Source of the DNA: a virus | Taxonomy: Duplodnaviria; Heunggongvirae; Uroviricota; Caudoviricetes | Length of the DNA: 19,981 nt | Direction: 5' to 3' (one strand) | IMG/VR virus record: IMGVR_UViG_2671180422_000005 | Part shown: positions 2,621 through 19,981 of the stretch, piece by piece | How positions within the stretch are numbered: the stretch's first letter is position 1 | Layout: each line of letters begins with the position of its first letter | The notes under the pieces: model-generated | What the model saw: only the letters and a program-made list of their open reading frames with translations | Told to the model about the DNA's origin: nothing | Databases searched by the model: none | Made by a program: the position numbers and the translations under genes

Positions 2621-3211
2621 ATGTCTCAAATTTTTGCTTACTGTCGGATATCAACGCTGGATCAGACCACCGAAAATCAACGCCGGGAAATCGAAAGTGC
2701 AGGTTTTAAAATCAAACCTCAGCAAATAATCGAAGAACACATTAGCGGCTCAGCAGCAACCAGTGAGCGTCCTGGTTTTAACCGGTTGCTTGCTCGCCTG
2801 AAATGTGGTGATCAATTGATTGTGACAAAACTGGATCGCCTTGGTTGTAATGCAATGGATATCAGGAAAACAGTGGAACAACTGACCGAAACAGGTATCA
2901 GAGTGCATTGCTTAGCATTGGGGGGCATTGACCTGACCAGTCCAACAGGAAAAATGATGATGCAAGTAATTTCAGCAGTCGCTGAATTTGAACGAGACCT
3001 TTTACTTGAACGCACTCATTCCGGGATAGTAAGAGCCCGCGGCGCAGGGAAACGTTTTGGTCGACCACCTGTGTTAAATGAAGAACAGAAACAGGCGGTA
3101 TTCGAACGAATTAAGTCAGGTGTAAGTATAAGTGCCATTGCCCGGGAATTCAAAACCTCGCGGCAAACCATTTTAAGAGCCAAAGCAAAACTTCAGACAC
3201 CTGACATATAA
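2621..3211 (+). CDS. pinQ: Serine recombinase, DNA invertase of the Pin/Gin/Hin/Cin family
   Basis: 196 aa; N-terminal catalytic motif YCRISTLDQ (active-site Ser10), C-terminal HTH ([18 protein letters not shown]); sequence as recalled for PinQ/PinR. Confidence 0.9.
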
Positions 3212-3308
3212 AAAATAATCTCGGTGTGAGATGCTTTACGTCTTCCAAGCCCCCTTCCTTGCCGTAAATGGAAAGATACATCTAATTATAGAATTTATAT
3301 GTTTTACC

Positions 3309-3444
3309 CTACGGCAGTGCTGGCCATTCAATATCCTGTGCAGTTGACGTATCAACACGGTTCAGCAATACCCGATACTTTTTCCATGCTTCCAGCAACG
3401 AGATTTCTTCCTCCGTTGCAATTTCCAGATCTGCAGCATCCTGA
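3309..3444 (-). pseudogene. 3' remnant (about 45 codons) of a tail fiber assembly gene tfa, fused to gene A
   Basis: Minus-strand frame reads ...[43 protein letters not shown]-stop, the conserved C-terminus of lambdoid Tfa proteins; no upstream Tfa sequence remains. Confidence 0.55.
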
Positions 3445-5337
3445 ATCTGCCAGTGTTTTCTTGTTGGTTGCTGCACCATCCTCTTCCTGCAGGCTCGCCA
3501 GCAGTGCACTGAGATCCAGCTGCCAGCGGGAAATACTGATGCGCAGCGCCGCCAGCGCATAAACGAAGCAGTCGAGTGCCTCATTGCGTCGCTTTTTGCT
3601 GTCCCACAGTATTTTTTTCCTGCCATCCACCCATTTTTCGACCTGCTCTTCAGCAGTCAGCTGCTGCGCTTCGGTCAGATCAAAAATATCCGGGTTATTC
3701 GGGAAGTGAACGGCACCGGGAAGCGGTTCATCCCCTTCCGGCGTCAGTGTGAAGCGGTTATAAATCTGCTCTTTCGCGGTATCCGTACCGATTTCGGTAA
3801 GGTAAACCCCGTTTTTGTTTCGCTTACGTGGCATGCTGGCCACCGGCTTTCCGTAGACGGATGCCCCTTTAATGGGGATCACCCGGAACAGCCCATGTTT
3901 TTTCGAGCGTTCATACACAATGGTCGGGTCAATCCCGCCAGTATCCCAGCAGATACGGGATACCGACATTTCTGCACCATTCCGGCGGGTATAGGTTTTA
4001 TTGATGGCCTCATCCACACGCAGCAGCGTCTGTTCATCGTCGTGGCGACCCATAATAATCTGCCGGTCAATCAGCCAGCTTTCCTCACCCGGCCCCCATC
4101 CCCATACGCGCATTTCGTAGCGGTCCAGCTGGGAGTCGATACCGGCGGTCAGGTAAGCCACACGGTCAGGAACGGGCGCTGAATAATGCTCTTTCCGCTC
4201 CGCCATCACCTCAGCATCCGGACGTTCGCCGATTTTCGCTTCCCATGTCTCACCGAGCGTGGTGTTTACGAAGGTTTTACGTTTTCCCGTATCCCCTTTC
4301 GTTTTCATCCAGTCTTTGACAATCTGCACCCAGGTGGTGAACGGGCTGTACGCCGTCCAGATGTGAAAGGTCACGCTGTCCGGCGGCTCAATCTCTTCAC
4401 CGGATGACGAAAACCAGAGAATGCCATCACGGGTCCAGATCCCGGTCTTTTCGCAGATATAACGGGCATCAGTGAAGTCCAGCTCCTGCTGGCGGATGAC
4501 GCAGGCATTATGCTCGCAGAGATAAAACACGCTGGAGGGGTCATCCGGCGTCCATTTGAGGCCAAACGGCGTCTCTTTGTCGCCAAATTTAAGATACTGC
4601 TCCTCCCCGCAGTGCGGGCAGGCAACATGAAAACGCATAAAATGCAGGGATTCACTGGCTGCACGCTCAATCTGGCAGGTGCCTCTCACTTTGGGCGTGG
4701 AGCCACGGATGGACTTTGGCCAGACCGAGCCTTCAATACGTTTGTCGCCAAGGAACGTCGGAGAGCCTTCCTGTTCAATATCCTCATCAAAGGCAGCAAG
4801 TTCATCATAACCCGCCACATCCACCGACTTTTCACGGTAGTTTTTTGCCGCTTTACCGCCCAGGCACCAGAAGCCACGACCATTGGAAAAACGCTTCATA
4901 GTGAGCGTGTTATCCCGGTGCTTTTTGCCATACCACGGAGCCAGCGCCAGCAGCGACGGAATATCGCGGATGGTCGGCTCAACGTGGGTTTTCATAAAGT
5001 TCTCGGCATCACCATCCGTCGGCAACCAGATAAGGGTGTTGCGCTGCTTATGCTCTATAAAGTAGGCATAAACACCCAGCAGCATTTTGGAATAACCGAC
5101 ACGGGCAGACTTCACCACATTCACCTCACGGATGTAGTCGCTGCCCATCGCATTCATGATGGCCCGCTGAAAGGGCAGTGTTTCCCAGCGCCCTTCCTGG
5201 TATGCGGATTCTTTCGGGAGATAGTAATTAGCATCCGCCCATTCAACGGCGGTCTGTGGCTCCGGCCTGAACAGTGAGCGAAGCCCGGCGCGGACAAAAT
5301 GCCGCAGCCTGTTAACCTGACTGTTCGATATATTCAC
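3352..5337 (-). CDS. A: Terminase large subunit gpA-like, 661 aa, with the last about 10 lambda residues replaced by 30 unrelated residues
   Basis: Collinear with lambda gpA from [19 protein letters not shown] through ...[11 protein letters not shown]; diverges after coordinate 3445 into ...[30 protein letters not shown], which is tfa-derived DNA read in another frame. Confidence 0.9.
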
Positions 5338-5857
5338 TCAGCAACCCCGGTATCAGTTCATCCAGCGCGGCTGCTTTGTTCATGGCTTTGATGATATCCC
5401 GTTTCAGGAAATCAACATGTCGGTTTTCCAGTTCCGGAAAACGCCGCTGCACCGACAGGGGGATCCCGTCGAGAATACTGGCAATTTCACCTGCGATCCG
5501 CGACAGCACGAAAGTACAGAATGCGGTTTCCACCACTTCAGCGGAGTCTCTGGCATTTTTCAGCTCCTGTGCGTCGGCCTGCGCACGCGTAAGTCGATGG
5601 CGTTCGTACTCAATAGTCCCTGGCTGGAGATCTGTCTCGCTGGCCTGCCGCAGTTCTTCAACTTCCCGGCGCAGCTTTTCGTTCTCAATTTCAGCATCCC
5701 TTTCGGCATACCATCTTATAACGGCGGCAGAGTCATAAAGCACCTCATTACCCTTGCCACCGCCTCGCAGAACGGGCATTCCCTGTTCCTGCCAGTTCTG
5801 AATGGTACGGATACTCGCACCGAAAATGTCAGCCAGCTGCTTTTTGTTGACTTCCAT
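5312..5857 (-). CDS. nu1: Terminase small subunit Nu1 (181 aa)
   Basis: MEVNKKQLADIFGASIRTIQNWQEQGMPV... matches lambda Nu1 as recalled; 3' end overlaps the A start as in lambda; ATG at 5855-5857. Confidence 0.9.
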   Translation of the reverse strand: MEVNKKQLADIFGASIRTIQNWQEQGMPVLRGGGKGNEVLYDSAAVIRWYAERDAEIENEKLRREVEELRQASETDLQPGTIEYERHRLTRAQADAQELKNARDSAEVVETAFCTFVLSRIAGEIASILDGIPLSVQRRFPELENRHVDFLKRDIIKAMNKAAALDELIPGLLSEYIEQSG

Positions 5858-6034
5858 TGTTCATTCCACGGCCAAAAACAGAGAAAGGAAACGACAGAGG
5901 CCCAAAAGCTCGTTTTCAGCACCTGTCGTTTCCTTTCTTTTCAGGGGGTATTTTAAATAAAAACATTAAGTTACGACGAAGAAGAACGGAAATGCCTTAA
6001 ACCGGAAAATTTTCATAAATAGCGAAAACCCGCG
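5858..6034 (-). promoter_or_regulatory. cosB-like terminase binding region between cosN and the nu1 start
   Basis: Reverse complement reads CGCGGGTTTTCGCTATTTATGAAAATTTTCCGGTTTAAGGC...GAAAGGAAACGACAGGTGCTGAAA..., near-identical to the lambda left-end cosB region (R3-I1-R2-R1) as recalled. Confidence 0.7.
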
Positions 6035-6046
6035 AGGTCGCCGCCC
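6035..6046 (-). other. cosN, the 12-nt lambda cohesive-end sequence
   Basis: Plus strand AGGTCGCCGCCC is the reverse complement of GGGCGGCGACCT; flanked by CGTAACCTGTCGG, reverse complement of the lambda right end ...CCGACAGGTTACG. Confidence 0.85.
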
Positions 6047-6245
6047 CGTAACCTGTCGGATCGCCGGAAAGGACCCGCAAAATGATAATAATTATCATCT
6101 GCATGTCACAACGTGCATCTACGCCATCAAACCACGTCAAATAATCAATTATGACGCAGGTATCATATTAATTGATCTGCATCAACTTAACGTAAAAACA
6201 ACTTCAGACAATACAAATCAGCGACACTGAATACGGGGCAACCTC

Positions 6246-6479
6246 ATGTCAACGAAGAACAGAACCCGCAGAACAACAACCCGCAACATCCGCTTTCCTA
6301 ACCAAATGATTGAACAAATTAACATCGCTCTTGAGCAAAAAGGGTCCGGGAATTTCTCAGCCTGGGTCATTGAAGCCTGCCGCCGGAGACTGTGCTCAGA
6401 AAAAAGAGTTTCTTCTGAAGCAAACAAAGAAAAGAGTGACATTACTGAATTGCTCAGAAAACAGGTCAGACCAGATTGA
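6246..6479 (+). CDS. ynfO: Small ribbon-helix-helix (Arc/CopG-like) protein with basic N-terminal tail, YnfO/YlcI (DUF3950)-like
   Basis: 77 aa; RHH signature NIRFPNQMIEQINIALEQKGSGNFSAWVIEACRRRL (beta strand, helix, Gly turn, helix); ATG at 6246. Confidence 0.7.
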   Translation: MSTKNRTRRTTTRNIRFPNQMIEQINIALEQKGSGNFSAWVIEACRRRLCSEKRVSSEANKEKSDITELLRKQVRPD

Positions 6480-6536
6480 AGCAATTTAGATAATCGTGCA
6501 GACTACGCCCCCTCATATCACATGGAAGGTTTATCT

Positions 6537-6947
6537 ATGGATCAGGTAGTCATTTTTAAACAAATATTTGATAAAGTTCGAAACGATTTAAACTATCAAT
6601 GGTTTTATTCTGAGCTAAAACGTCACAATGTCTCACATTACATTTACTATTTAGCCACAGAGAATGTTCATATTGTATTAAAAAATGATAATACAGTGTT
6701 ATTAAAGGGCCTAAAAAACATTGTGTCTGTCAAATTTTCAAAGGATAGGCATCTTATAGAAACGACCTCTAATAAGCTGAAATCCAGAGAGATCACATTT
6801 CAGGAATACAGAAGAAACCTTGCTAAAGCAGGAGTTTTTCGGTGGGTTACAAATATCCACGAACAAAAAAGATATTACTATACCTTTGATAATTCATTAC
6901 TATTTACTGAAAGCATCCAGAAAACTACACAGATCTTACCACGCTAA
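6537..6947 (+). CDS. ydfO: DUF1398-family protein (YdfO/YbcV-like), 136 aa
   Basis: ORF 6522-6947; second ATG at 6537 has GGAAGG 8 nt upstream; 42 nt downstream of the RHH gene on the same strand. Confidence 0.75.
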
Positions 6948-7051
6948 ACCATAACGTCCGGCTTCTCTCACTCCTGAGCCGGACTGCATTGGTTTAATAA
7001 AAACCATCAACAATTGTGATTTAGATATTCGGAACCATTCAAATATAACAA

Positions 7052-7072
7052 AACCCCGTAAAAACGAGGTTT
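7052..7072 (-). terminator. Intrinsic terminator downstream of gnsB
   Basis: Minus-strand RNA AACCUCGU-UUUU-ACGGGGUU (8-bp stem with one G-U pair) followed by UUGUUAUAUUU. Confidence 0.5.
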
Positions 7073-7098
7073 ATGGATAAATTTTATTATTGAATACA

Positions 7099-7275
7099 TC
7101 AGATTAAATTAATCTTGACATCATAGCTTTCAAGACCCGTCATTTTTTCCCGTGCGGTAAACTGAATACTGGTAACTTCTTTCCCGGTCTTTTTCTTAAG
7201 TTCAATAATTTTTTTTGTTATATATTCAGAAATATCTGCTTCTGCTTTTGTTTTTAAGTTTTCAATATTCATCAT
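7099..7275 (-). CDS. gnsB: GnsA/GnsB-family small protein (58 aa)
   Basis: Below the ORF-track cutoff; hand translation MMNIENLKTKAEADISEYITKKIIELKKKTGKEVTSIQFTAREKMTGLESYDVKINLI; AAAAGAGGAA Shine-Dalgarno immediately upstream of the ATG at 7273-7275. Confidence 0.75.
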   Translation of the reverse strand: MMNIENLKTKAEADISEYITKKIIELKKKTGKEVTSIQFTAREKMTGLESYDVKINLI

Positions 7276-7443
7276 TTCCTCTTTTAGTCTGTTATGACTT
7301 TCCAGTTACACAGTAAGTCGATTATATGGTGCAAACGTGTAAAAGATAAGATGAAACATCGCAATAATCAACATACGATAGTCTAAATTTTACACAAACA
7401 GACAAAGAGAATTTTCCTGAATTATCAATGCAATAGCATCAAA

Positions 7444-7674
7444 TCAACTCAAGAGCCTTATTGCTGCTTCCAGAATTTCTTCTGAAGTAACATGTCGATC
7501 CGCGGCTACATAAATGACTTTATGATCTCCGGTCAGAGATGGAAACCCTGCGGCCATTACAGTAAGGTGTGTTTTTTCGCCATTTGGATATTCACGCATG
7601 ATGGTGTTAACTCCAGTCATCGCTGGCACTACCACTGCTGGTTCAGAGTTAAAAAAAACTATGATTTTTTTCAT
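7444..7674 (-). CDS. Hypothetical 76-aa protein between cspI and gnsB
   Basis: ORF-track frame 7444-7716 opens with TTG; the first ATG gives MKKIIVFFNSEPAVVVPAMTGVNTIMREYPNGEKTHL...; weak Shine-Dalgarno; sits where K-12 Qin has ynfN and the paralogous chromosomal locus has ymcE. Confidence 0.45.
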   Translation of the reverse strand: MKKIIVFFNSEPAVVVPAMTGVNTIMREYPNGEKTHLTVMAAGFPSLTGDHKVIYVAADRHVTSEEILEAAIRLLS

Positions 7675-7710
7675 GATGTTACCGTAGTATGTGAGTATCC
7701 ATCGAATAGA

Positions 7711-7738
7711 CACCAAGCAAAAAAGCTCCCGAAGGAGC
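7711..7738 (-). terminator. Candidate intrinsic terminator downstream of cspI
   Basis: Minus-strand GCUCC-UUCG-GGAGC hairpin followed by UUUUUUGCUUGG. Confidence 0.45.
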
Positions 7739-7945
7739 CTTCATTTTCACTTTTTTAAATCCAACGACAGACGGCTGGCATTTAAGTATTGTGAAATATT
7801 ATCAAATGTAATCATCATTGATTTACAAAAGATACATTTTGCCCCGAAAGGATTCATGTCAGAAACATCAAAAGATGATGTTCTATACTGGGAACCATGA
7901 CAACACGGGCATCTAAAGTGAATATGGTTTGTAATATTGTCTACC

Positions 7946-8158
7946 TCAAAGCGCCACTACATGAACAGCGGCAGGACCTTTAGGTCCGTTCTCAATACCA
8001 AATTCAACTTCCTGATTCTCAGTTAATGTTTTGAAATCGTTGCTCTGAATTGCTGAGAAATGGACAAACACATCTTTGCTGCCATCTTTCGGCGTGATGA
8101 AACCAAAACCTTTTTCAGGGTTAAACCATTTCACTAAACCAGTCATTTTGTTAGACAT
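7946..8158 (-). CDS. cspI: Cold shock protein CspI (CspA family, 70 aa)
   Basis: [53 protein letters not shown]... with RNP1/RNP2 motifs; long leader upstream typical of csp genes. Confidence 0.95.
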
Positions 8159-8520
8159 AATTATTACCTTTTGAAGAAATTAGCCCTTGGGCAGAATGGT
8201 CCGAAAAAAAATATCAGAGAGAAAAACCAACAAGGAAATCTCAAGAGGTACAAATAATAAAATTATAACAATGACTGCTTCAGATAAATTTGTAACAAAC
8301 CAGAACACCATTAACGCATGATTAACCACCCATAGCAAGGATTACTTTTGTAAAGAAAAACACAGCAATGAAAGAATAGCTTTATTTATTAATAAAACGT
8401 GTCATTCTGATTAAGACCTTTTATCTTACCCTTAAGATTTCAGGAATTTTGGCTCATGGAAGAGTCCTTTTTATTTAAATTTTACATTCCGCGATGTAAA
8501 TGTTCCGATTTAATATTACC

Positions 8521-9544
<1,024 letters not shown>

Positions 9545-9548
<4 letters not shown>

Positions 9549-9856
9549 AGATATTTATGATGAGGACGCTCGTGCTTATTGGCAGGATTTTCAATCTTAA
9601 AGGAGTACTGATGCTGCAGATAAGACTCAACTTTTTCTGACAATTTTTCTGCTACTTCCAGGAAGACTTGCCGGACGCTCCTTCTGGCTGCTGCCTCATA
9701 AAACTCCAGCGCAGCTCCTTCAACACGGTCCATGGCGACATCCAGGTCAAAAATTTCACCGTCAAAGCGTTCTTTGTCCTGTAAGGCTACAGTTACCGTA
9801 ACTTTATTCTCAAAATTACGGACTCCTTTCACAACCAGTTCATAGTCTTGAGTCAT
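9545..9856 (-). CDS. ydfR: DUF1327-family protein encoded between holin and endolysin
   Basis: 103-aa ORF MTQDYELVVKGVRNFENKVTV...; tightly packed between essQ stop (9861) and the endolysin start. Confidence 0.8.
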
Positions 9857-9860
9857 TGGA

Positions 9861-10076
9861 TTACTCTCCTCTCGCAGCCTTACGCCTGTCTTCTTTAATC
9901 TTGAAATAAAGATTTGTCAGATACGTCAGCAGGCCAAAAACCAGGCTACCCAGCACACCGATTGCAGCCCACTGTGACGGAGTTACTTTATCGAGTAACT
10001 GCAATGCCCAGAAACCAGCATTACCCGCCGATGTGCCATAGGCAACACCTGTTGTTAACTTATCCATTGATTTCAT
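9861..10076 (-). CDS. essQ: Holin with dual-start motif (71 aa from first Met)
   Basis: [28 protein letters not shown]... with two in-frame Met codons (10074-10076 and 10065-10067) separated by Lys-Ser; GGGGTGAGGA Shine-Dalgarno; charged C-terminal tail. Confidence 0.9.
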
Positions 10077-10295
10077 ATCCTCACCCCGATGTACACGGAT
10101 GGTGCAATATGTTTGAAAAGATCGGAGTCTACGGGGTAGTTTTGACAGCACACGTTGTTCTCAACGGCGCTAAAAAAACATACACATTAAAAATGTGGGT
10201 AATTATTTTGAAAGAAAGTCATATATAAAATAATAATACGAGAAATGTTTTCATATTTAGTGTACTGTATACGGCCATTTATACAGGAAAAGCCT

Positions 10296-10466
10296 ATGTC
10301 AGAACGTAAAAACTCAAAATCACGCCGTAATTATCTCGTTAAATGTTCCTGCCCAAACTGCACCCAAGAGTCAGAACACAGTTTTTCAAGAGTACAAAAA
10401 GGTGCCCTTTTGATCTGCCCTCATTGCAACAAAGTATTCCAGACAAATCTTAAAGCTGTAGCCTGA
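10296..10466 (+). CDS. ynfU: Small zinc-ribbon protein (56 aa), YnfU-like
   Basis: MSERKNSKSRRNYLVKCSCPNCTQESEHSFSRVQKGALLICPHCNKVFQTNLKAVA; two CxxC pairs; AGGAAA 5 nt upstream of the ATG; opposite strand to the surrounding late genes. Confidence 0.65.
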   Translation: MSERKNSKSRRNYLVKCSCPNCTQESEHSFSRVQKGALLICPHCNKVFQTNLKAVA

Positions 10467-10520
10467 TTGATTTTATTAGTAACAAGTATTTTTTATATTT
10501 TAATAATATATTTAAAGCAG

Positions 10521-10548
10521 ATAATAAAAAACCCGCCTGAGCGGGTTT
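10521..10548 (-). terminator. Intrinsic terminator between cspB and the lysis cassette (bidirectional hairpin)
   Basis: Plus strand AAAAAACCCGC-CTGA-GCGGGTTT; on the minus strand the stem is followed by UUUUUUAUUAU. Confidence 0.6.
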
Positions 10549-10829
10549 GAGATTGTGGTGCTTTTTGTGGGAGTCATCCACTTACGCACTTTGTTTTGCC
10601 ATGCCAGCAGTTAGCTTCTGCTGTAAAACTATTCATGCAGCAAACCTGCACTTCACCACAATGGTTAGCATACTTTTCCTGATTAAGATTTTGCCAAATA
10701 TGCTAGCCATTGTTTCATGTATTGGACCTCCTTACTTTTTATTAAAGAGATCCAATATTCACTACTCTGTCCGTATCTCTACTCAGGCATCAGCCTTCTT
10801 CGTTATCGTATACAGACGAGCGATGAATT

Positions 10830-11045
10830 TTAATCAGTAATGATGACATTTGCTGCTGCAGGACCTTTAGCACCACTCTCTATAGAGAAGGTAACCTTTT
10901 GACCTTCAAATAAGGTTCGATAATTATCATTCTGAATCGCAGAAAAATGCACAAACACATCTTTACTACCATCAACAGGAGAAATAAAGCCGAAACCTTT
11001 ATCAGCGTTAAACCATTTTACTAAACCAGTCATTTTATTTGACAT
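10830..11045 (-). CDS. cspB: Cold shock protein CspB (CspA family, 71 aa)
   Basis: [53 protein letters not shown]...; AAGGAA Shine-Dalgarno. Confidence 0.95.
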
Positions 11046-11345
11046 TCTACATTCCTTAACTTGAGCCTTTCGGCATAAATGGTTTGCATAACAGAAACGA
11101 CTTCGTACTTAATTGGAGAGACTCAAAGAAGGAATAAGTGAATAACACCTGAAATGAGAACTGCTTTAGTAAACTACTTCGTATATCGTCTGTTCTTCAA
11201 ACCGACGCAATCATTAACGCATAGTTGAACATATGAAGCAATGTTTATTTTAGACATCCAGCCATCTTCAACCCCATCAAAAAACTATAGCTTTCTTCAG
11301 GAACGTGTGTATAGTGCGCCAAGTTATCAGTATTAAGGAATTTTT

Positions 11346-11558
11346 TTGTCCCGTAAAATGACAGGAATTGTCAAAACCTTTGACGGCAAAAGCGGCAAGG
11401 GTCTTATCACCCCATCCGATGGTCGTATCGATGTCCAGCTTCATGTTTCAGCGCTCAATCTCCGCGATGCAGAAGAAATTACCACCGGATTACGCGTGGA
11501 ATTTTGCCGGATAAATGGTCTGCGTGGCCCTTCAGCTGCCAATGTTTACCTTTCATGA
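11346..11558 (+). CDS. cspF: CspA-family paralog CspF (70 aa), divergent from cspB
   Basis: [45 protein letters not shown]...; the frame opens with TTG at 11346. Confidence 0.85.
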
Positions 11559-11612
11559 GCTATATTAAAGCTTTAATTTCAGGCCCCATCGGATCACACA
11601 TGGAGAGTTTTT

Positions 11613-11702
11613 ATGAATAACCCCGTCTGTCTTGATGACTGGTTGATTGGCTTTAAAAGCTTATGCTGTACTTTGGCCGTAATAGCTCTGCTAATAATAT
11701 AA
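11613..11702 (+). CDS. Candidate 29-aa hydrophobic peptide ORF (unannotated)
   Basis: GGAGAG 5 nt upstream of ATG at 11613; hand translation [29 protein letters not shown] then TAA; not in the ORF track because of its length. Confidence 0.25.
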
Positions 11703-11844
11703 TAAGCAGACTCATTGTGTTTAGGGACATTGTACTGGAAGAAAACATTTTAAACATCAGGCAAATAACCAAGTCACCAGCTAAATAATAAGTTAACAGA
11801 CATGAGTCCCGGGATGAGATTCAACATTACCATTGCCCCATTTA

Positions 11845-11872
11845 AAGCACAAAACCCGCTCATCAGCGGGTT
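11845..11872 (-). terminator. tR'-like intrinsic terminator downstream of the Q gene
   Basis: Hairpin AACCCGCT-CATC-AGCGGGTT at 11853-11872; on the minus strand followed by UUUUGUGCUUUAAA. Confidence 0.55.
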
Positions 11873-11919
11873 TTCTACTTTTTCTTAACGTCGGGTATAC
11901 AAAGCCCATCGTTGAAAAA

Positions 11920-11948
11920 ATTTTATCCATATTTTTTGAAAAATGCAA
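11920..11948 (-). promoter_or_regulatory. Candidate PR'-like late promoter
   Basis: Minus strand reads TTGCAT, 17-nt spacer, TAAAAT (plus-strand complement at 11943-11948 and 11920-11925), about 40 nt upstream of the tR'-like hairpin. Confidence 0.4.
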
Positions 11949-11979
11949 ACATCATGTCGCCATCTTCAGCAAAAATCAT

Positions 11980-12732
11980 TTATCTCGTCACCTTCCTCAA
12001 TTGCGCTTCCGCGTATGCTTCTTCCTGCCAGCACTTTGTTACCAGTTTACCAATGACGTCCGCATACCCCTTATACCACTGATAATCGGTCAGGTCTGGT
12101 ACCAGCTTCTGGACATGACGTCGTGCCAGCGTGGTCGGTAAACGACTAAACCGGTTTCCATTACAACGCCCACAAATCTTATATACCGGTACGCCATGAA
12201 ACCGGGTTCTTTTTTCATCCAGAACAATCCCTTTACCCTTACACCCTCTGCACGCTGTGCTGGCTTCGCCCTTACCATGGCAATGCTGACATAGTTCCTT
12301 CACCCATTCTTCCTTGATTACAGATTCCCCGCGTCTGTAGTGTTTCACCACTTCGCGCAATACATTATAAAATCCCGTACCTGAACAATGCTCACAGCGA
12401 GCCTTACTTGCCGCAGACCTGGAGTAATCAGCAAAGGCAAAACTCACGAGGTAAGGAATAATCTGTAACCGGATTTCTTCACTCAATTTGTTCAATGTCG
12501 GGTTATCCAGTGCCATCGCGTAATTTAGCAGGCCTTCAATCGCAAACTGAGGGTCCTGAACACCAACTTTTGCCAGAAATAAGGCCAACCCAAGTGGTGC
12601 TTTCGACTGCACCATCCCCTGCGCTGCCATTACATCCGTAATTGTTAAACAACCGGTGCCTGTCGCTGGAGCGTCATCGCTCAATTTTGGAGATTTTGGG
12701 GAGTAATATTTTGGTAAGGCTTCAAGGTTCAT
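11980..12732 (-). CDS. quuQ: Late-gene antiterminator Q (250 aa)
   Basis: ATG at 12730-12732 (MNLEALPKYYSPKSPKL...); four CxxCxGxG repeats (CEHCSGTG, CQHCHGKG, CRGCKGKG, CGRCNGNR); sits directly upstream of the PR'/tR'-like module and lysis genes. Confidence 0.9.
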   Translation of the reverse strand: MNLEALPKYYSPKSPKLSDDAPATGTGCLTITDVMAAQGMVQSKAPLGLALFLAKVGVQDPQFAIEGLLNYAMALDNPTLNKLSEEIRLQIIPYLVSFAFADYSRSAASKARCEHCSGTGFYNVLREVVKHYRRGESVIKEEWVKELCQHCHGKGEASTACRGCKGKGIVLDEKRTRFHGVPVYKICGRCNGNRFSRLPTTLARRHVQKLVPDLTDYQWYKGYADVIGKLVTKCWQEEAYAEAQLRKVTR

Positions 12733-12745
12733 GCTCGTTCTCCAC

Positions 12746-13486
12746 TTACGCCAGTACGCCAATTGTCAGCGCGCGATCGATAAAACGAAATATCAGCTCC
12801 AGTTGGGAGCCATACTTATCTTCAAATGCCACTGTATCCGTATGCAGCTCGTTGTGATGCTTTCTGCACAAAGGCAACACAAAGAGATCATGTGCTTTTG
12901 TTCCCATTCCGCCCTGCCCGTGACCAATCAGATGATGCGGATCGTCGGCTGGCATACCGCAGCAAGCACACGGCTGTGTCTTAACCCAACGTGTGTATTT
13001 CTCCTTAACCCAGCGGCGACGTTTAGGCAGCTTCATGAAAGATTCCGGAGACTCTGGATCAACGGTGATGCTTACCACCGTCTTTTCCTGTGGTGATTTT
13101 TGTTGCTGGTGGGCGTAAGGCAACGGTGCAAGATTTTTTGTGCGTTGTTTCAATATGCTGGTGGCGGTCTGCTCTCCCGGTACGATGTCGCTTTCGCGGT
13201 ACACCGAGCAGATTTTTTCCGCTGGTAATCCCAGCGAACGACGCGATACAGCCTCAGGTAGTGCATCCACCACCTGATTGCAGACCGCCCACCAGGATAA
13301 TTCAGCCAAAGATAATTCCCGCTCCTGCGTACCGCTTATTGCGTGACGGATGACGTCAATCACCCATGCTGTCAGATTTTGTTGAGCAAGCAGCTCCAGT
13401 GATTCCGATGTCTGGTCACGCAGTTGGTTGTCGCAGTGCCAGCACAACACCATTGCGCCGGTATTCATCATAAACTTTGGGATCAT
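12746..13486 (-). CDS. ydfU: DUF968-family protein with HNH-like Cys/His motif
   Basis: 246-aa ORF; C-terminal CACCG...DPHHLIGHG...LPLCRKHHNELH; ATG at 13486 has GGGGAG upstream but lies 71 nt inside dicC; shorter than the K-12 YdfU length I recall. Confidence 0.75.
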   Translation of the reverse strand: MIPKFMMNTGAMVLCWHCDNQLRDQTSESLELLAQQNLTAWVIDVIRHAISGTQERELSLAELSWWAVCNQVVDALPEAVSRRSLGLPAEKICSVYRESDIVPGEQTATSILKQRTKNLAPLPYAHQQQKSPQEKTVVSITVDPESPESFMKLPKRRRWVKEKYTRWVKTQPCACCGMPADDPHHLIGHGQGGMGTKAHDLFVLPLCRKHHNELHTDTVAFEDKYGSQLELIFRFIDRALTIGVLA

Positions 13487-13643
13487 ACTGAAGCTCCCCG
13501 CCAGATGCCTCCTGTAGACGCATCGCGCGACCTTCGGGAACTAAATCCCCTTTCCAGCTATAAAGCGAAGCCAAACGAATACCTGCTGCTTGTGCAAGTT
13601 TTGTTTTTGAACCGAAATACAAAAGAGCGTCAGTTTTAAGCAT
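13416..13643 (-). CDS. dicC: Cro-like HTH regulator DicC (75 aa)
   Basis: MLKTDALLYFGSKTKLAQAAGIRLASLYSWKGDLVPEG... (HTH); divergent from dicA across an 83-bp operator region. Confidence 0.85.
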   Translation of the reverse strand: MLKTDALLYFGSKTKLAQAAGIRLASLYSWKGDLVPEGRAMRLQEASGGELQYDPKVYDEYRRNGVVLALRQPTA

Positions 13644-13657
13644 TTAAAACACCTTTA

Positions 13658-13677
13658 TTGTTAGTCATAACTAACAA
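13658..13677. promoter_or_regulatory. Operator-like perfect palindrome in the dicC-dicA intergenic region
   Basis: TTGTTAGT-CATA-ACTAACAA (8-bp arms); a second dyad TTAGC-ATTA-GCTAA at 13711-13724 overlaps the dicA ribosome-binding region. Confidence 0.5.
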
Positions 13678-13726
13678 GATAGATGTTAACAAAAACATAG
13701 TCAATACGATTTAGCATTAGCTAACT

Positions 13727-14134
13727 ATGGAAACAAAAAATTTAACTATCGGCGAACGCATCAGGTATCGTCGGAAAAACCTCAAACACACCCAAAGGTC
13801 TCTTGCTAAAGCCCTGAAAATCTCCCATGTGTCTGTATCACAATGGGAACGGGGTGATAGTGAACCTACAGGGAAGAACCTTTTTGCCCTCAGCAAAGTA
13901 TTGCAATGCTCACCAACATGGATTCTATTTGGCGATGAAGACAAGCAACCAACACCACCTGTTGAGAAGCCAGTTGCCTTATCCCCCAAAGAACTAGAGC
14001 TCCTTGAGCTGTTTAATGCACTGCCAGAATCAGAACAGGATACCCAGCTCGCCGAAATGCGAGCTCGAGTAAAAAACTTCAATAAACTCTTTGAAGAATT
14101 ACTAAAAGCCCGTCAGCGGACAAATAAAAGATAA
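13727..14134 (+). CDS. dicA: Repressor DicA (HTH, cI/C2-like; 135 aa)
   Basis: METKNLTIGERIRYRRKNLKHTQRSLAKALKISHVSVSQWERGDSEP... matches DicA as recalled. Confidence 0.95.
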   Translation: METKNLTIGERIRYRRKNLKHTQRSLAKALKISHVSVSQWERGDSEPTGKNLFALSKVLQCSPTWILFGDEDKQPTPPVEKPVALSPKELELLELFNALPESEQDTQLAEMRARVKNFNKLFEELLKARQRTNKR

Positions 14135-14194
14135 CATCATCAATGAGTTATCTTTTACCACATCAATTATGTTAGCTATAGCATACAAAATCAC

Positions 14195-14223
14195 TTGACC
14201 GATATGTTAGTCATGGCTAATCT
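14195..14223 (+). promoter_or_regulatory. Candidate dicB-operon promoter (PL analogue) with embedded operator
   Basis: TTGACC (14195-14200), 17-nt spacer, TAATCT (14218-14223); the spacer contains ATGTTAGTCAT, repeating the TGTTAGTCAT core of the dicA-dicC palindrome. Confidence 0.45.
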
Positions 14224-14300
14224 TGTTTGCATCAACACACCGCACGGTGTTCTCAGCAAACAGTTCCGCTACCCCAGCGTTAAGGGGAAATGAGGTCAGC

Positions 14301-14456
14301 ATGGATACTATCGATCTTGGCAACAACGAATCTCTGGTGTACGGCGTGTTTCCAAACCAGGACGGCACGTTCACCGCAATGACGTATACCAAAAGCAAAA
14401 CGTTTAAAACCGAAAATGGTGCCCGTCGCTGGCTGGAAAGAAACTCAGGTGAGTGA
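14301..14456 (+). CDS. ydfA: YdfA (DUF1391) small protein, 51 aa
   Basis: ATG at 14301, MDTIDLGNNESLVYGVFPNQDGTFTAMTYTKSKTFKTENGARRWLERNSGE; first gene after the candidate promoter. Confidence 0.8.
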   Translation: MDTIDLGNNESLVYGVFPNQDGTFTAMTYTKSKTFKTENGARRWLERNSGE

Positions 14457-14457
14457 T

Positions 14458-14586
14458 ATGGATTTCGACACAATCATGGAAAAGGCTTACGAAGAATACT
14501 TCGAAGGCCTTGCCGAAGGCGAAGAAGCTCTCAGCTTCAGTGAGTTTAAACAGGCGCTTTCCAGTTCGGCAAAATCTAACGGCTGA
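14458..14586 (+). CDS. ydfB: YdfB small protein, 42 aa
   Basis: ATG at 14458, one nt after the ydfA stop; hand translation MDFDTIMEKAYEEYFEGLAEGEEALSFSEFKQALSSSAKSNG; a different frame from the ORF-track entry 14453-14662. Confidence 0.7.
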   Translation: MDFDTIMEKAYEEYFEGLAEGEEALSFSEFKQALSSSAKSNG

Positions 14587-14615
14587 TAAGCGAAACAGCA
14601 CCGCGAGGAATCAGT

Positions 14616-14834
14616 ATGCAGAAACGAGAACCCGTCATCATCGCGCCAGACTATACCGATGATGAACTTTATGAGTGGATGCGCCAGAAAATTAATGCAG
14701 CGCAGGATCTGAAATGGGCTAATGAAGCCAGGGCTAAGCAGGCTGAAAATCTGTCCGCTCTGGAGCAGGATATCACCAATCTGGAAAAAGCAGCGGCATT
14801 AAGCATTGCCAGAATGATTACATACCCGCGTTAG
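14616..14834 (+). CDS. ydfC: YdfC, 72 aa
   Basis: MQKREPVIIAPDYTDDELYEWMRQKINAAQDLKWANEARAKQAENLSALEQDITNLEK... Confidence 0.85.
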   Translation: MQKREPVIIAPDYTDDELYEWMRQKINAAQDLKWANEARAKQAENLSALEQDITNLEKAAALSIARMITYPR

Positions 14835-15174
14835 TAGCTAATCAACAAAGCTAAGGTTAGTAATTAAGGAGTTCTCCACGGGTGAGGTGGAGTGCGTGCG
14901 CCGGACACGGGTGCGCATCCGGAACTGACAGTTTACTGAAAGGATATTTCCCTGAAAAGTCAGACCATAACGCGAAAGCGCACGGCGAGGTAGCTGGTTC
15001 ATAGATAGCCTGTCGTTAAATTTTCGTCGACCGTGCGCTTCCGGTTGTGGCAACCCGCGAAATGGCGCGGCGGTAAGTATGGCGGGGTTATTCCTTCCCC
15101 GTTGAGGACACCGGGTTGTCAGGTTGACCATACGCTTAAGTGACAACCCCGCTGCAACGCCCTCTGTTATCAAT

Positions 15175-15232
15175 TTTCTGGTGACGTTTGGCGGTATCAG
15201 TTTTACTCCGTGACTGCTCTGCCGCCCTTTTT
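15175..15232 (+). ncRNA. dicF: DicF small RNA (Hfq-dependent inhibitor of ftsZ translation), processed from the dicB-operon transcript
   Basis: TTTCTGGTGACGTTTGGCGGTATCAGTTTTACTCCGTGACTGCTCTGCCGCCCTTTTT matches the DicF sequence as recalled; ends in a GGCGG/CCGCC stem plus U5 terminator; mature 5' end is uncertain by a few nt. Confidence 0.8.
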
Positions 15233-15401
15233 AAAGTGAATTTTGTGATGTGGTGAATGCGGCTGAGCGCACGCGGAACAGTTAAAACCAAAAACAGTGT
15301 TATGGGTGGATTCTCTGTATCCGGCGTTAATTGTTAACTAGTTAACGTCACCTGGAGGCACCAGGCACTGCATCACAAAATTCATTGTTGAGGACGCGAT
15401 A

Positions 15402-15590
15402 ATGAAAACGTTATTACCAAACGTTAATACGTCTGAAGGTTGTTTTGAAATTGGTGTCACTATCAGTAACCCAGTATTTACTGAAGATGCCATTAACAAG
15501 AGAAAACAAGAACGGGAGCTATTAAATAAAATATGCATTGTTTCAATGCTGGCTCGTTTACGTCTGATGCCAAAAGGATGTGCACAATGA
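15402..15590 (+). CDS. dicB: Cell-division inhibitor DicB (kil-type), 62 aa
   Basis: MKTLLPNVNTSEGCFEIGVTISNPVFTEDAINKRKQERELLNKICIVSMLARLRLMPKGCAQ; GAGGA Shine-Dalgarno. Confidence 0.95.
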   Translation: MKTLLPNVNTSEGCFEIGVTISNPVFTEDAINKRKQERELLNKICIVSMLARLRLMPKGCAQ

Positions 15591-15778
15591 ATTCAGCATT
15601 TGTGCTTGTTCTGACAGTTTTTCTTGTTTCCGGAGAGCCAGTTGATATTGCAGTCAGTGTTCACAGGACAATGCAGGAGTGTATGACTGCAGCAACCGAA
15701 CAGAAAATTCCCGGTAACTGTTACCCGGTCGATAAAGTTATTCACCAGGATAATATCGAAATCCCGGCAGGTCTTTAA
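15587..15778 (+). CDS. ydfD: YdfD small membrane protein, 63 aa
   Basis: ATG overlaps the dicB stop (ATGA); MNSAFVLVLTVFLVSGEPVDIAVSVHRTMQECM... with N-terminal TM segment. Confidence 0.9.
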   Translation: MNSAFVLVLTVFLVSGEPVDIAVSVHRTMQECMTAATEQKIPGNCYPVDKVIHQDNIEIPAGL

Positions 15779-15870
15779 AACAGTTCCGTAATAAATATCC
15801 GGTTTCATTCTTATATGCCAGCAATGGCAGGGATTTGTTCATCCTTAAATCTGTCATGAGGTTAAAACAA

Positions 15871-18342
15871 ATGAGTAAAGTCTTTATTTGCGCCGCTATT
15901 TCTGACGAACTGGCAACAAGGGAAGAAGGCGCTGTGGCTGTAGCCACAGCCATTGAAGCTGGCGACGAACGCCGTGCTCGAGCAAAATTTCACTGGCAAT
16001 TCCTGGAACATTATCCGGCTGCTCAGGACTGCGCTTATAAATTTATTGTCTGCGAGGATAAACCTGGCATACCCCGCCCTGCCCTCGATTCATGGGATGC
16101 TGAATATATGCAGGAAAACCGCTGGGATGAGGAGTCTGCTTCTTTTGTCCCGGTTGAGACTGAATCCGATCCGATGAACGTCACTTTTGACAAGCTGGCC
16201 CCTGAAGTACAGAACGCTGTCATGGTTAAGTTCGACACATGTGAAAACATCACCGTTGATATGGTTATTAGCGCACAGGAATTGTTGCAGGAAGACATGG
16301 CAACATTCGACGGACATATCGTTGAAGCGTTGATGAAAATGCCAGAAGTTAACGCCATGTATCCGGAGCTTAAGTTGCACGCCATTGGGTGGGTTAAGCA
16401 TAAATGTATTCCTGGTGCTAAATGGCCCGAAATTCAGGCAGAGATGCGCATCTGGAAAAAACGTCGCGAAGGTGAACGCAAGGAAACCGGAAAATACACG
16501 TCTGTTGTTGATCTCGCCCGCGCCAGAGCCAATCAACAGTACACTGAAAATTCAACAGGAAAAATCAGCCCGGTCATTGCTGCCATTCATCGCGAATACA
16601 AGCAGACATGGAAAACACTGGATGACGAACTGGCCTACGCTCTCTGGCCTAGTGATGTGGATGCCGGAAACATTGACGGCAGCATCCATCGCTGGGCAAA
16701 AAAAGAAGTTATCGACAACGACCGCGAAGACTGGAAGCGTATCTCGGCATCAATGCGCAAACAGCCTGATGCCCTTCGCTACGACCGCCAAACTATTTTT
16801 GGCCTTGTCCGTGAGCGTCCGATCGACATTCACAAAGATCCCGTAGCACTGAACAAATATATCTGCGAATACCTGACGACAAAGGGCGTGTTTGAGAATG
16901 AAGAAACAGACCTGGGCACTGTTGATGTTCTCCAGTCATCAGAAACACAAACTGATGCAGTGGAAACTGAGGTATCTGATATCCCAAAAAATGAAACCGC
17001 GCCGGAAGCTGAACCATCTGTAGAGCGTGAGGGGCCGTTCTATTTCCTCTTCGCAGATAAGGACGGAGAAAAATACGGTCGCGCAAACAAACTCTCTGGT
17101 CTGGATAAGGCACTGGCTGCTGGCGCCACTGAAATCACAAAAGAAGAATATTTTGCCCGAAAAAATGGCACATACACGGGCTTACCGCAAAATGTAGATA
17201 CCGCTGAAGATTCAGAACAACCAGAGCCGATAAAAGTTACCGCTGACGAAGTAAACAAAATTATGCAGGCAGCCAATATCAGCCAGCCTGACGCCGATAA
17301 GTTGCTTGCTGCATCACGTGGTGAATTTGTTGAAGGGATTAGTGACCCGAATGATCCGAAATGGGTTAAGGGGCTCCAGACCCGCGATTCTGTGAACCAG
17401 AACCAGCATGAATCGGAACGGAACTACCAAAAAGCGGAACAAAACAGTCCAAATGCGTTACAAAACGAGCCAGAAACGAAACAGCCTGAACCAGTAGCGC
17501 AACAGGAAGTGGAAAAAGTCTGCACCGCCTGCGGTCAGACCGGCGGCGGCAACTGCCCTGATTGTGGCGCGGTGATGGGCGACGCAACATACCAAGAAAC
17601 ATTCGATGAAGAGTATCAGGTTGAAGTTCAGGAAGATGATCCGGAGGAAATGGAAGGCGCTGAACATCCACACAAGGAGAACACTGGCGGCAATCAGCAT
17701 CACAATAGCGATAATGAAACTGGCGAGACGGCAGATCACCCAATTAAGGTGAACGGTCATCACGAAATCACATCCACCAGCAGGACGTGTGACCATCTAA
17801 TGATCGACCTTGAAACCATGGGAAAAAATCCTGATGCCCCGATCATCTCAATAGGTGCAATATTTTTCGATCCGCAAACCGGAGATATGGGACCGGAATT
17901 TAGTAAGACTATCGATCTGGAAACTGCTGGCGGAGTCATTGATCGGGACACCATTAAATGGTGGCTTAAGCAATCACGCGAAGCGCAATCTGCCATTATG
18001 ACCGATGAAATCCCGTTAGATGATGCACTGTTACAATTGCGAGAATTTATCGACGAAAACTCCGGTGAATTTTTTGTTCAGGTTTGGGGAAATGGAGCCA
18101 ACTTCGACAACACGATTTTGCGCCGTTCATACGAACGGCAGGGGATCCCCTGCCCGTGGCGTTACTACAACGATCGCGATGTACGCACAATCGTTGAGCT
18201 GGGGAAAGCCATAGACTTCGATGCCAGAACGGCTATTCCATTCGAAGGTGAGCGCCATAATGCACTTGATGACGCCCGTTACCAGGCAAAATACGTTTCA
18301 GTTATCTGGCAAAAACTGATCCCGAGTCAGGCTGATTCTTAA
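15871..18342 (+). CDS. ydfE: Large RecE-like (YdfE-family) protein with central CxxC...CxxC zinc ribbon and C-terminal DEDDh (DnaQ-like) 3'-5' exonuclease domain, 823 aa
   Basis: ATG at 15871 with GAGG upstream; exonuclease motifs MIDLETMG (Exo I), NGANFDNTIL (Exo II), HNALDDARYQAKY (Exo III); zinc ribbon CTACGQTGGGNCPDCG; acidic low-complexity linker; N-terminus matches YdfE as recalled. Confidence 0.8.
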   Translation: MSKVFICAAISDELATREEGAVAVATAIEAGDERRARAKFHWQFLEHYPAAQDCAYKFIVCEDKPGIPRPALDSWDAEYMQENRWDEESASFVPVETESDPMNVTFDKLAPEVQNAVMVKFDTCENITVDMVISAQELLQEDMATFDGHIVEALMKMPEVNAMYPELKLHAIGWVKHKCIPGAKWPEIQAEMRIWKKRREGERKETGKYTSVVDLARARANQQYTENSTGKISPVIAAIHREYKQTWKTLDDELAYALWPSDVDAGNIDGSIHRWAKKEVIDNDREDWKRISASMRKQPDALRYDRQTIFGLVRERPIDIHKDPVALNKYICEYLTTKGVFENEETDLGTVDVLQSSETQTDAVETEVSDIPKNETAPEAEPSVEREGPFYFLFADKDGEKYGRANKLSGLDKALAAGATEITKEEYFARKNGTYTGLPQNVDTAEDSEQPEPIKVTADEVNKIMQAANISQPDADKLLAASRGEFVEGISDPNDPKWVKGLQTRDSVNQNQHESERNYQKAEQNSPNALQNEPETKQPEPVAQQEVEKVCTACGQTGGGNCPDCGAVMGDATYQETFDEEYQVEVQEDDPEEMEGAEHPHKENTGGNQHHNSDNETGETADHPIKVNGHHEITSTSRTCDHLMIDLETMGKNPDAPIISIGAIFFDPQTGDMGPEFSKTIDLETAGGVIDRDTIKWWLKQSREAQSAIMTDEIPLDDALLQLREFIDENSGEFFVQVWGNGANFDNTILRRSYERQGIPCPWRYYNDRDVRTIVELGKAIDFDARTAIPFEGERHNALDDARYQAKYVSVIWQKLIPSQADS

Positions 18343-18414
18343 TGTTCAACTGTCGCCGGTTGTGACTGGTATTCTGCAACCGGCGCTCGTCTGATGTAAG
18401 AGATAAAGAAATCG

Positions 18415-18666
18415 ATGAGCGAAGTAATCATGATTGTCTCTCCCGGCAAATGGGTATCCGAAGAGCAGTTAATTGCGCTGAAAGGAATAAAAAAAGGTAC
18501 GTTAAAAAAGGCCCGGGAAAAATCGTTTATGGAAGGAAGGGAATATAAGCATGTCGCTCATGACGGTATGCCATGGGATAACAGTCCATGCTTTTACAAC
18601 CTGGAAGAAATTGATCGCTGGATTGAGCGCCAGGCATCAGCGAGACCAAGACGTCATCTTACTTGA
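18415..18666 (+). CDS. Excisionase-like protein
   Basis: 83-aa ORF immediately upstream of int on the same strand; start could be ATG 18415 or 18430. Confidence 0.65.
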   Translation: MSEVIMIVSPGKWVSEEQLIALKGIKKGTLKKAREKSFMEGREYKHVAHDGMPWDNSPCFYNLEEIDRWIERQASARPRRHLT

Positions 18667-18700
18667 CTAAAAGCCACACTAACTAATGAGAGAAGTTGAA

Positions 18701-19981
18701 ATGAAATATCCGACAGGCGTGGAAAACCATGGAGGGAAATTACGTATCTGGTTTGTTTATAAAGACGTAAGAGTCAGGGAAAATCTGGGGGTTCCTGACA
18801 CAGCAAAAAACAGGCGCGTTGCAGGTGAACTACGCTCCTCTGTTTGTTACGCAATAAAAACTGGTGTTTTCGACTATGCAAAACAGTTTCCCTCCTCACG
18901 CAATCTGGAAAAATTTGGTGAGGCCCGACAAGATTTAACCATAAAAGAACTGGCTGAAAAATTTCTGGCACTGAAAGAAACTGAAGTCGCCAAAACATCA
19001 CTCAACACATACCGTGCCGTCATCAAAAATATCCTGAGCATAATCGGTGAAAAAAATCTTGCCTCATCGATTAATAAAGAAAAATTACTGGAGGTTCGTA
19101 AAGAGTTACTGACTGGATACCAGATCCCCAAAAGTAACTATATTGTTACACAACCAGGGAGATCGGCTGTAACTGTAAATAATTACATGACAAATCTTAA
19201 CGCCGTGTTCCAGTTTGGTGTTGATAACGGTTACCTGGCAGATAATCCGTTTAAGGGGATCTCGCCATTAAAGGAATCAAGAACCATTCCGGATCCTCTT
19301 TCGCGGGAAGAATTTATCCGTCTTATCGATGCGTGCAGAAATCAGCAAGCAAAAAATTTATGGTGTGTTTCTGTTTATACTGGAGTTCGCCCTGGTGAGC
19401 TGTGTGCACTTGGATGGGAGGACATAGATCTGAAAAATGGAACAATGATGATCAGGAGAAATTTAGCAAAAGACCGTTTCACGGTACCAAAAACACAGGC
19501 GGGAACCAATCGGGTCATTCATCTTATTAAGCCAGCAATCGACGCTCTCCGGAGTCAGATGACATTAACGAGACTGAGCAAAGAGCATATCATTGATGTT
19601 CACCTCAGAGAGTATGGCAGAACAGAAAAACAAAAATGCACCTTTGTTTTTCAACCTGAAGTGTCAGCGAGAGTAAAAAATTATGGTGACCATTTTACCG
19701 TTGACTCAATAAGGCAGATGTGGGACGCAGCGATAAAACGTGCCGGACTCCGCCATCGAAAATCATATCAGTCGAGACATACTTATGCCTGCTGGTCGCT
19801 GACAGCTGGTGCTAACCCGGCATTTATAGCAAACCAGATGGGCCATGCAGATGCGCAAATGGTATTTCAGGTATACGGAAAATGGATGTCTGAAAACAAT
19901 AATGCACAGGTAGCTTTGTTAAATACACAGTTAAGCGAGTTTGCCCCAACCATGCCCCATAACGAAGCAATGAAAAATTAA
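18701..19981 (+). CDS. intQ: Tyrosine recombinase, phage integrase (426 aa from ATG 18701), apparently full length
   Basis: N-terminal MKYPTGVENHGGKLRIWF, the type recalled for Rac IntR; box I TGVRPGELCALGWEDIDL, box II SRHTYACWSLTAGANPAFIANQMGHADAQMVFQVYGKW with the presumed catalytic Tyr; stop TAA at 19979-19981. Confidence 0.9.
   Translation: MKYPTGVENHGGKLRIWFVYKDVRVRENLGVPDTAKNRRVAGELRSSVCYAIKTGVFDYAKQFPSSRNLEKFGEARQDLTIKELAEKFLALKETEVAKTSLNTYRAVIKNILSIIGEKNLASSINKEKLLEVRKELLTGYQIPKSNYIVTQPGRSAVTVNNYMTNLNAVFQFGVDNGYLADNPFKGISPLKESRTIPDPLSREEFIRLIDACRNQQAKNLWCVSVYTGVRPGELCALGWEDIDLKNGTMMIRRNLAKDRFTVPKTQAGTNRVIHLIKPAIDALRSQMTLTRLSKEHIIDVHLREYGRTEKQKCTFVFQPEVSARVKNYGDHFTVDSIRQMWDAAIKRAGLRHRKSYQSRHTYACWSLTAGANPAFIANQMGHADAQMVFQVYGKWMSENNNAQVALLNTQLSEFAPTMPHNEAMKN

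Follow-up and report, generated by a model that had tools for sequence, protein, structure and literature searches.

The window, the whole 19,981-nucleotide stretch analysed here, carries two genes of a Qin-type prophage, dicC and ydfU, whose reading frames overlap on the same strand, raising the question of how such an arrangement arose. An earlier note, made from the sequence alone, had set the start of ydfU 71 nt inside dicC, had taken the overlap for a probable recombination scar lacking the relBE/hokD/rem segment of E. coli K-12, and had proposed that either this strain carries a deletion or K-12 an insertion. We compared the window with K-12 Qin (reference 1635000-1655000; K-12 locus coordinates below count within that stretch), with the Qin-type phage PhiR42_1 from ECOR13, whose genome was deposited as complete (PV340562.1), and with a census set of 5,426 complete E. 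coli genomes. The feature is almost certainly the scar of one or more illegitimate-recombination deletions in a Qin-type cryptic prophage, inherited by a small E. coli lineage.

Mapping of the junction

Alignment by blastn matched window 5329..13463 to K-12 locus 840..8973 (99.83% identity over 8,135 bp) and window 13459..16637 to K-12 locus 12667..15845 (99.84% over 3,179 bp), leaving K-12 locus positions 8974..12666 unmatched by the window. When the alignments were extended base by base, identity on the ydfU side extended up to 13463 and that on the dicC side down to 13462, so that the runs have exactly two bases (TA) in common and none are added, in agreement with a three-way alignment. The recombination scar suspected earlier is thus supported and placed at one junction, 13462/13463 (Table 1). 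The DNA missing at this point amounts to 3,698 bp relative to K-12 (record 1643973..1647670) and to 8,499 bp relative to PhiR42_1.

The K-12 annotation gives the gene order ydfU, rem, hokD, relE, relB, ydfV, flxA, ydfW (intK), ydfX, dicC, as the earlier note had given it. In these terms the window has lost ydfU codons 1-111, the genes rem, hokD, relE, relB, ydfV, flxA, ydfW and ydfX, and the 14 codons at the end of dicC. The absence of the relBE/hokD/rem segment was borne out by blastn against K-12 1635000-1655000, which found no DNA of rem, hokD, relE, relB, ydfV, flxA, ydfW or ydfX anywhere in the window. The distance from dicC to ydfU is 3.3 kb in K-12 and 8.2 kb in PhiR42_1, and the overlap, which would have spoken against a scar had K-12 shared it, does not occur in K-12.

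Neither direct nor inverted repeats of at least 10 nt pair the K-12 endpoints (~8973 and ~12671), and no IS or att remnant was detected there. Since the two sides share only TA, and repeats, IS and att sequences are lacking at the endpoints, the junction is attributed to illegitimate, microhomology-level recombination. The loss could have occurred as one ~8.5-kb event in a PhiR42_1-like ancestor, as one 3.7-kb event in a K-12-like ancestor or in several steps. The sequence comparison mildly favours a PhiR42_1-like ancestor, because the phage matches the flanks of the window more closely than K-12 does and has the same terminase fragment.

Table 1. Features of the window around the dicC-ydfU junction
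Feature	Position	Strand	Basis
ydfT (quuQ), antitermination protein Q homologue, intact	11980..12732	-	ORF, ATG at 12732
Chimeric 246-aa ORF	12746..13486	-	ORF list
ydfU remnant, codons 112-349 and stop of the 349-codon gene	12746..13463	-	blastn, base-by-base comparison
dicC' (chimeric Cro-like regulator, 75 aa)	13416..13643	-	Translations
Deletion junction, 2-bp microhomology TA	13462..13463	none	Identity runs and three-way alignment
dicC coding DNA read out of frame, front of the 246-aa ORF	13464..13499	-	Sequence, K-12 comparison
Promoter-like site TTGACT, 17 nt, TATCTT, between dicA and dicC	13676..13704	-	Consensus scan only
dicA, CI-like repressor, intact, divergent from dicC'	13727..14134	+	ORF; collinear with K-12 dicA; named dicA in MIN11

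Origin of the overlap and state of ydfU

The 246-aa and 75-aa ORFs, both on the minus strand, share 13416..13486. This 71-nt overlap exists because the DicC frame runs, after the deletion, out of frame into ydfU DNA: 23 nt are dicC DNA and 48 nt are ydfU DNA that now encodes a new DicC tail. The overlap is not conserved across related genomes and is present in the deletion lineage only. Its length, and the positions of a GGGGAG motif (13499..13494) and of an ATG 7 nt downstream of it (13486..13484), had been described correctly; the interpretation of 13486 as the ydfU start does not hold, the true start having been deleted together with 111 conserved codons. Nor do the first 23 ydfU codons lie inside the 3' end of dicC, as had been thought: only eight codons derive from dicC DNA, and 48 of the 71 nt belong to ydfU. 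Both GGGGAG and ATG are made of dicC codons (…GGC GGG GAG CTT CAG TAT GAT…), and, as read from the K-12 sequence, the same ATG in K-12 dicC opens only a short out-of-frame ORF of ~17 codons. The ATG at 13486 is therefore an out-of-frame dicC ATG that is fortuitously in frame with the ydfU remnant.

K-12 YdfU has 349 aa, of which the window retains residues 112-349, the remnant being 99.8% identical to K-12 locus 8256..8973. Downstream of it, after a gap of 13 nt, lies ydfT, which is collinear with K-12 ydfT (locus 7490..8242) and whose counterpart in E. coli MIN11, a carrier of the same junction, is annotated as an antitermination protein; from ydfT through the ydfU remnant the window is 100% identical to PhiR42_1. 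Comparison with 91 full-length homologues, a check proposed by the earlier note for the N-terminus of its ydfU frame, showed that the true N-terminal 111 residues are missing and that eight unrelated residues (MIPKFMMN, encoded by dicC DNA out of frame) stand in their place. Residues 73-111 of the lost part are nearly invariant among these homologues (77-90% identity) and include the conserved C93, H101, H102 and H108, the cut falling between H108 and C118. The 246-aa ORF thus departs from the architecture of full-length E. coli YdfU (~349 aa with a conserved N-terminal region). Given the loss of this nearly invariant Cys/His block, we regard what remains of ydfU as most likely a pseudogene. 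At the same coordinates in MIN11, PGAP reports a pseudogene, 'DUF968 domain-containing protein, incomplete, missing N-terminus', and the 246-aa ORF is called neither by PGAP in that genome nor by the gene caller of the contig collection. A search of NCBIfam returned no model for the ydfU remnant and none for Rem.

The C-terminal part of the 246-aa ORF contains the motif CACCG...DPHHLIGH...LCRKHHNELH. Its residues 57-243 match the Pfam DUF968 profile (PF06147) over positions 1-171 of 171 with 257 bits (cut-off 27.8), and there is a marginal match to HNHc_6 (27.4 bits, cut-off 26.6), in support of the HNH-nuclease-like Cys/His motif recognized in the earlier note. Among the 91 homologues C276, C279, H287, H288, C310 and H318 are invariant and H314 is nearly so, and all of them are present in the window ORF. 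This HNH-like motif of YdfU/DUF968 has already been published: DUF968 forms group 7 of the His-Me finger superfamily, in which YdfU is named (PMC5714182), and a second study describes it as the fusion of an Orf-like domain with a zinc-finger HNH (PMC4118853). Both studies offer predictions only, and the five papers returned by a full-text search on DUF968 included no biochemical study of YdfU. The YdfU sequence found no close relative when compared with all PDB chains, the only match being a chance one (E = 0.19).

Residues 93-125 of K-12 YdfU, encoded at K-12 locus 8931..9029 (-), retain their 3' half in the window at about 13421..13463. In this N-terminal block the spacings of C93-x7-H101H102…C118-x2-C121-x-N123-x-L match those of the C-terminal C279-x7-HH…C310-x2-H-x-N-x-L, a likeness that hints at another His-Me-like finger, unannotated and lying beyond the Pfam DUF968 model. 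A profile-profile comparison of the N- and C-terminal regions aligned nine columns (E = 0.072, probability 0.8%), and a second HNH motif is thus not established. An AlphaFold2 model of a full-length YdfU homologue built with 91 sequences (mean pLDDT 52.9, pTM 0.34) contains a β-hairpin and a helix at residues 105-127, where the confidence is below 50.

Judging from its sequence, a truncated YdfU protein starting at 13486 could be made, because a plausible Shine-Dalgarno sequence and ATG precede a complete Pfam DUF968 domain that is 100% identical to the phage. It may then be asked whether the overlap is functional and selected, with the 246-aa ORF translated from the internal GGGGAG/ATG as an active, N-terminally shortened HNH protein. 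The Shine-Dalgarno-like GGGGAG at 7 nt from the ATG, the full DUF968 domain with its Cys/His motif and the persistence of an intact ORF on 40 public contigs would agree with this proposal; however, an in-frame fusion is expected by chance once in three, the same GGGGAG/ATG exists in K-12 dicC where it opens only a short ORF, the nearly invariant N-terminal block is gone and two gene callers pass over the ORF. Moreover, because the carriers differ by few SNPs per 10 kb, the intactness of the ORF says nothing on selection. We therefore consider a selected, functional overlap unlikely and retain the pseudogene interpretation.

The chimeric DicC

The deletion has also altered the product of dicC. 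DicC has 76 aa in K-12 and 75 aa in the window (DicC'), with residues 1-62 identical and the native 14-residue tail KTKRAGRLNNENHS replaced by 13 residues, RNGVVLALRQPTA, encoded by ydfU DNA out of frame (13416..13458 including the stop). Residues 3-59 of DicC' match P22_Cro (PF14549) with 44.1 bits (cut-off 30.2), the same as K-12 DicC. Since this domain is intact, DicC' probably still binds DNA. With the NCBIfam DicC model NF007282, DicC' matches positions 1-62 of 75 and scores 127.4 bits, below the cut-off of 130, which explains the generic name given to it by PGAP in MIN11, 'Cro/CI family transcriptional regulator'.

Probable consequences for the Qin switch

In K-12, Rem is an antirepressor that relieves DicA repression of dicBF, with a 165-fold induction, and a dicC-dependent induction by urea and heat has also been described (PMC10448788); dicC forms an operon with ydfX and intK that is repressed by DicA (PMC11430063). 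The Qin prophage of the window has likely lost Rem, the only known DicA antirepressor, along with the RelBE and HokD toxin modules; flxA and ydfV are gone from the dicC-ydfU interval as well. As rem is deleted, the Rem route to DicB/DicF is lost, and this prophage should be unable to induce the dicBF cell-division inhibitors through Rem. The Rem-independent, DicC-dependent routes, spontaneous and by urea or heat, may remain.

Among the K-12 sequences deleted, downstream of hokD, is a strong hairpin resembling a terminator. It reads AACCCGCTTCGGCGGGTT with a T run after it, is situated between hokD and rem at K-12 locus 10051..10034 (-) and is presumably the end of the relBE-hokD transcript. 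In the window the candidate dicC promoter region now precedes ydfT by 1.0 kb, a distance that contains no more than weak terminator-like sites, and would read dicC', the ydfU remnant and ydfT. It could be argued from the lost hairpin, this short distance and the weakness of the intervening sites that the deletion rewires the Qin genetic switch, the dicC promoter, dicC', the truncated HNH ORF and ydfT (Q) becoming a compact DicA-controlled unit; the removal by the deletion of Rem, of the hairpin downstream of hokD and of the convergent flxA/ydfV genes would contribute to it. Such rewiring appears decidedly unlikely to us. If it did exist, a spontaneous lapse of DicA, in ~1% of cells, would co-induce the Q antiterminator and a shortened nuclease and, via Q, the holin and lysozyme genes, which in K-12 are insulated from the switch.

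Direction, distribution and authenticity of the deletion

The census genomes allowed the earlier alternative between a deletion in the strain and an insertion in K-12 to be settled. Among the 5,426 genomes, ydfU is uninterrupted across the breakpoint in 4,393 and dicC-ydfX is uninterrupted in 837, and 1,073 genomes cover at least 80% of the 3.7-kb segment of K-12 type. The junction itself occurs in a single genome, that of MIN11 (O89m:H9). Because it truncates two genes that are intact in many genomes, and is so rare, the counts indicate a deletion in the lineage of the window and not an insertion in K-12. For the window to be ancestral, K-12 would have had to gain rem-hokD-relBE-ydfV-flxA-intK between dicC and ydfU. 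relBE is indeed said to have integrated beside hokD (PMC6379469) and the K-12 segment does contain an integrase fragment, but the inserted DNA would then have to include the very 111 codons that encode the conserved YdfU N-terminus, together with the native end of DicC. In addition, intact ends of both genes are found in thousands of genomes and in a complete phage, the endpoints bear no target-site duplication or att-like repeat, and full-length ydfU and dicC exist in genomes and phages without a K-12-specific insertion signature. An insertion in K-12 is thus highly improbable and, in our opinion, effectively refuted.

A mosaic boundary, produced by module exchange between two lambdoid prophages, was considered as another possible origin of the junction. 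Lambdoid prophages are mosaic, and E. coli TB06052 displays a different ydfU truncation next to a different immunity region. In the window, however, both flanks belong to one and the same Qin/PhiR42_1 sequence (identity to K-12 Qin and the phage ~99.8-99.96%), and the crossover has neither foreign DNA nor a shared homology block, so that this origin is very improbable too. The truncation in TB06052, at 5557..6132 of its locus, is an independent event: identity with the window stops at about 13227, and a different immunity region with another Cro/CI gene and a repressor follows. PGAP labels the fused remnant a partial Cro/CI regulator.

There is practically no chance that an error of assembly or sequencing, such as a collapsed or chimeric contig, produced the junction. 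Nothing specific speaks for it beyond the repeat-rich nature of prophage regions (DUF968 has a median of two places per genome), and it is contradicted by the identical junction in MIN11, a closed genome, as well as in GCA_012671805.1 and GCA_036619475.1, unrelated NCBI assemblies that are structurally different elsewhere. As independent assemblies have the same junction, it is a specific structural difference and not a chance pattern. The exact 75-aa DicC' was found on 106 public contigs (NCBI, ENA, Logan), and the exact 246-aa ORF on 40; from the recurrence of the exact chimeric DicC we conclude that the deletion is inherited. An exact 34-mer spanning the junction had no match in the metagenome contig collection.

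The structural differences between carriers further suggest that the junction is older than their other changes. MIN11 and GCA_012671805.1 have a further deletion of 2,122 bp in ydfE-int, corresponding to window 16990..19111 and fusing ydfE to the integrase; neither the window nor GCA_036619475.1 has this deletion. MIN11 also lacks the DNA of window 3446..4104 and 4220..5462, and the sequence of the window is not that of MIN11 itself. By these comparisons, decay went on stepwise within the junction lineage.

Comparison with known Qin elements and significance

The window occupies the same chromosomal site as K-12 Qin (b1543-b1579 region). On the left, window 1..3445 matches K-12 ydfJ-ynfT-ydfK-pinQ, and rspB follows the integrase in MIN11 and in GCA_012671805.1, which places the integration at ydfJ/rspB. 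Gene order is the same from nohA to ydfU and from dicC to ydfE, with 99.8% identity, and both elements have dicA, dicC, dicF, dicB, ydfT, the csp genes and the lysis genes. Apart from the 3,698 bp that run from the 5' part of ydfU into the 3' end of dicC, which K-12 Qin has and the window lacks, the two differ at their extremities. Where the window has an intact ydfE exonuclease gene, an excisionase and an integrase, K-12 Qin has an IS2 remnant: a 706-bp IS2E remnant lies between the K-12 ydfE and intQ pseudogenes and faces 2,184 bp at window 16638..18821, a stretch that is 100% identical in many E. coli genomes. This extra DNA restores the YdfE exonuclease ORF (15835..18342, +), which has 835 aa from its first start codon (823 aa for the match in GCA_036619475.1), and is followed by an excisionase and by an integrase ORF, 18686..19981+, running past the end of the window. 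At the other extremity, the window has a terminase fragment where K-12 Qin has the tail-fibre genes tfaQ/stfQ. The stretch concerned, window 3446..5328 (1,883 bp), is annotated in other genomes as a terminase large-subunit fragment and nohA, and is collinear with PhiR42_1 from 3600; its presence in place of tfaQ/stfQ therefore indicates that the left end of Qin decayed differently in K-12 and in the strain of the window.

PhiR42_1 is closer still. Between the terminase gene and the ydfU breakpoint (9,864 bp) it shows four mismatches to the window, and over the 506 bp that lead from the dicC breakpoint into cI/dicA it shows one. Its order is cI(dicA)-cro(dicC)-cII-O-LygF-methyltransferase-transposases-flxA-ydfV-relB-relE-hokD-rem-ydfU-Q, and the window lacks the whole 8,499-bp interval from the cII-like gene through the 5' part of ydfU. 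Judged by the alignment with this phage, K-12 Qin is not the undeleted state for the dicC-ydfU interval, having undergone a different, smaller deletion of its own: 4.8 kb (PhiR42_1 13251..18049) are missing at a scar in ydfW-ydfX (K-12 locus 12358/12359), with loss of the transposases, the methyltransferase, LygF, replication protein O and most of the cII/YdaT-like gene. The short ydfX and ydfW ORFs of K-12 probably have their explanation in this deletion.

As to its protein products, the ydfU remnant keeps the whole domain of DUF968 (His-Me finger group 7, with YdfU and YbcO) and its CxxC...HH...CxxHHN..H motif, but, compared with full-length E. coli YdfU, it lacks residues 1-111 including the C93/H101/H102/H108 block. 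The locus is a worked example of how a prophage deletion creates misleading ORFs, here a 71-nt gene overlap and a false start behind a good ribosome-binding site, and is useful for annotation. It also reveals an E. coli lineage in nature in which Qin has no rem, relBE or hokD and DicC has exchanged its tail; work on the DicA/DicC/Rem switch or on chromosomal RelBE could use the carrier strains as natural controls.

Qin varies widely in size among strains, from 11 to 97 kb (PMC6379469), and the event described here is ordinary decay of a cryptic prophage by deletion, which can already be seen in public annotation. It resembles other cases of microhomology-mediated deletional decay of defective prophages in that the junction is clean and has a 2-bp microhomology, two genes are truncated, chimeric ORFs have arisen fortuitously and the distribution is restricted to a lineage; nothing in it is unusual for this class, of which it is one more instance.
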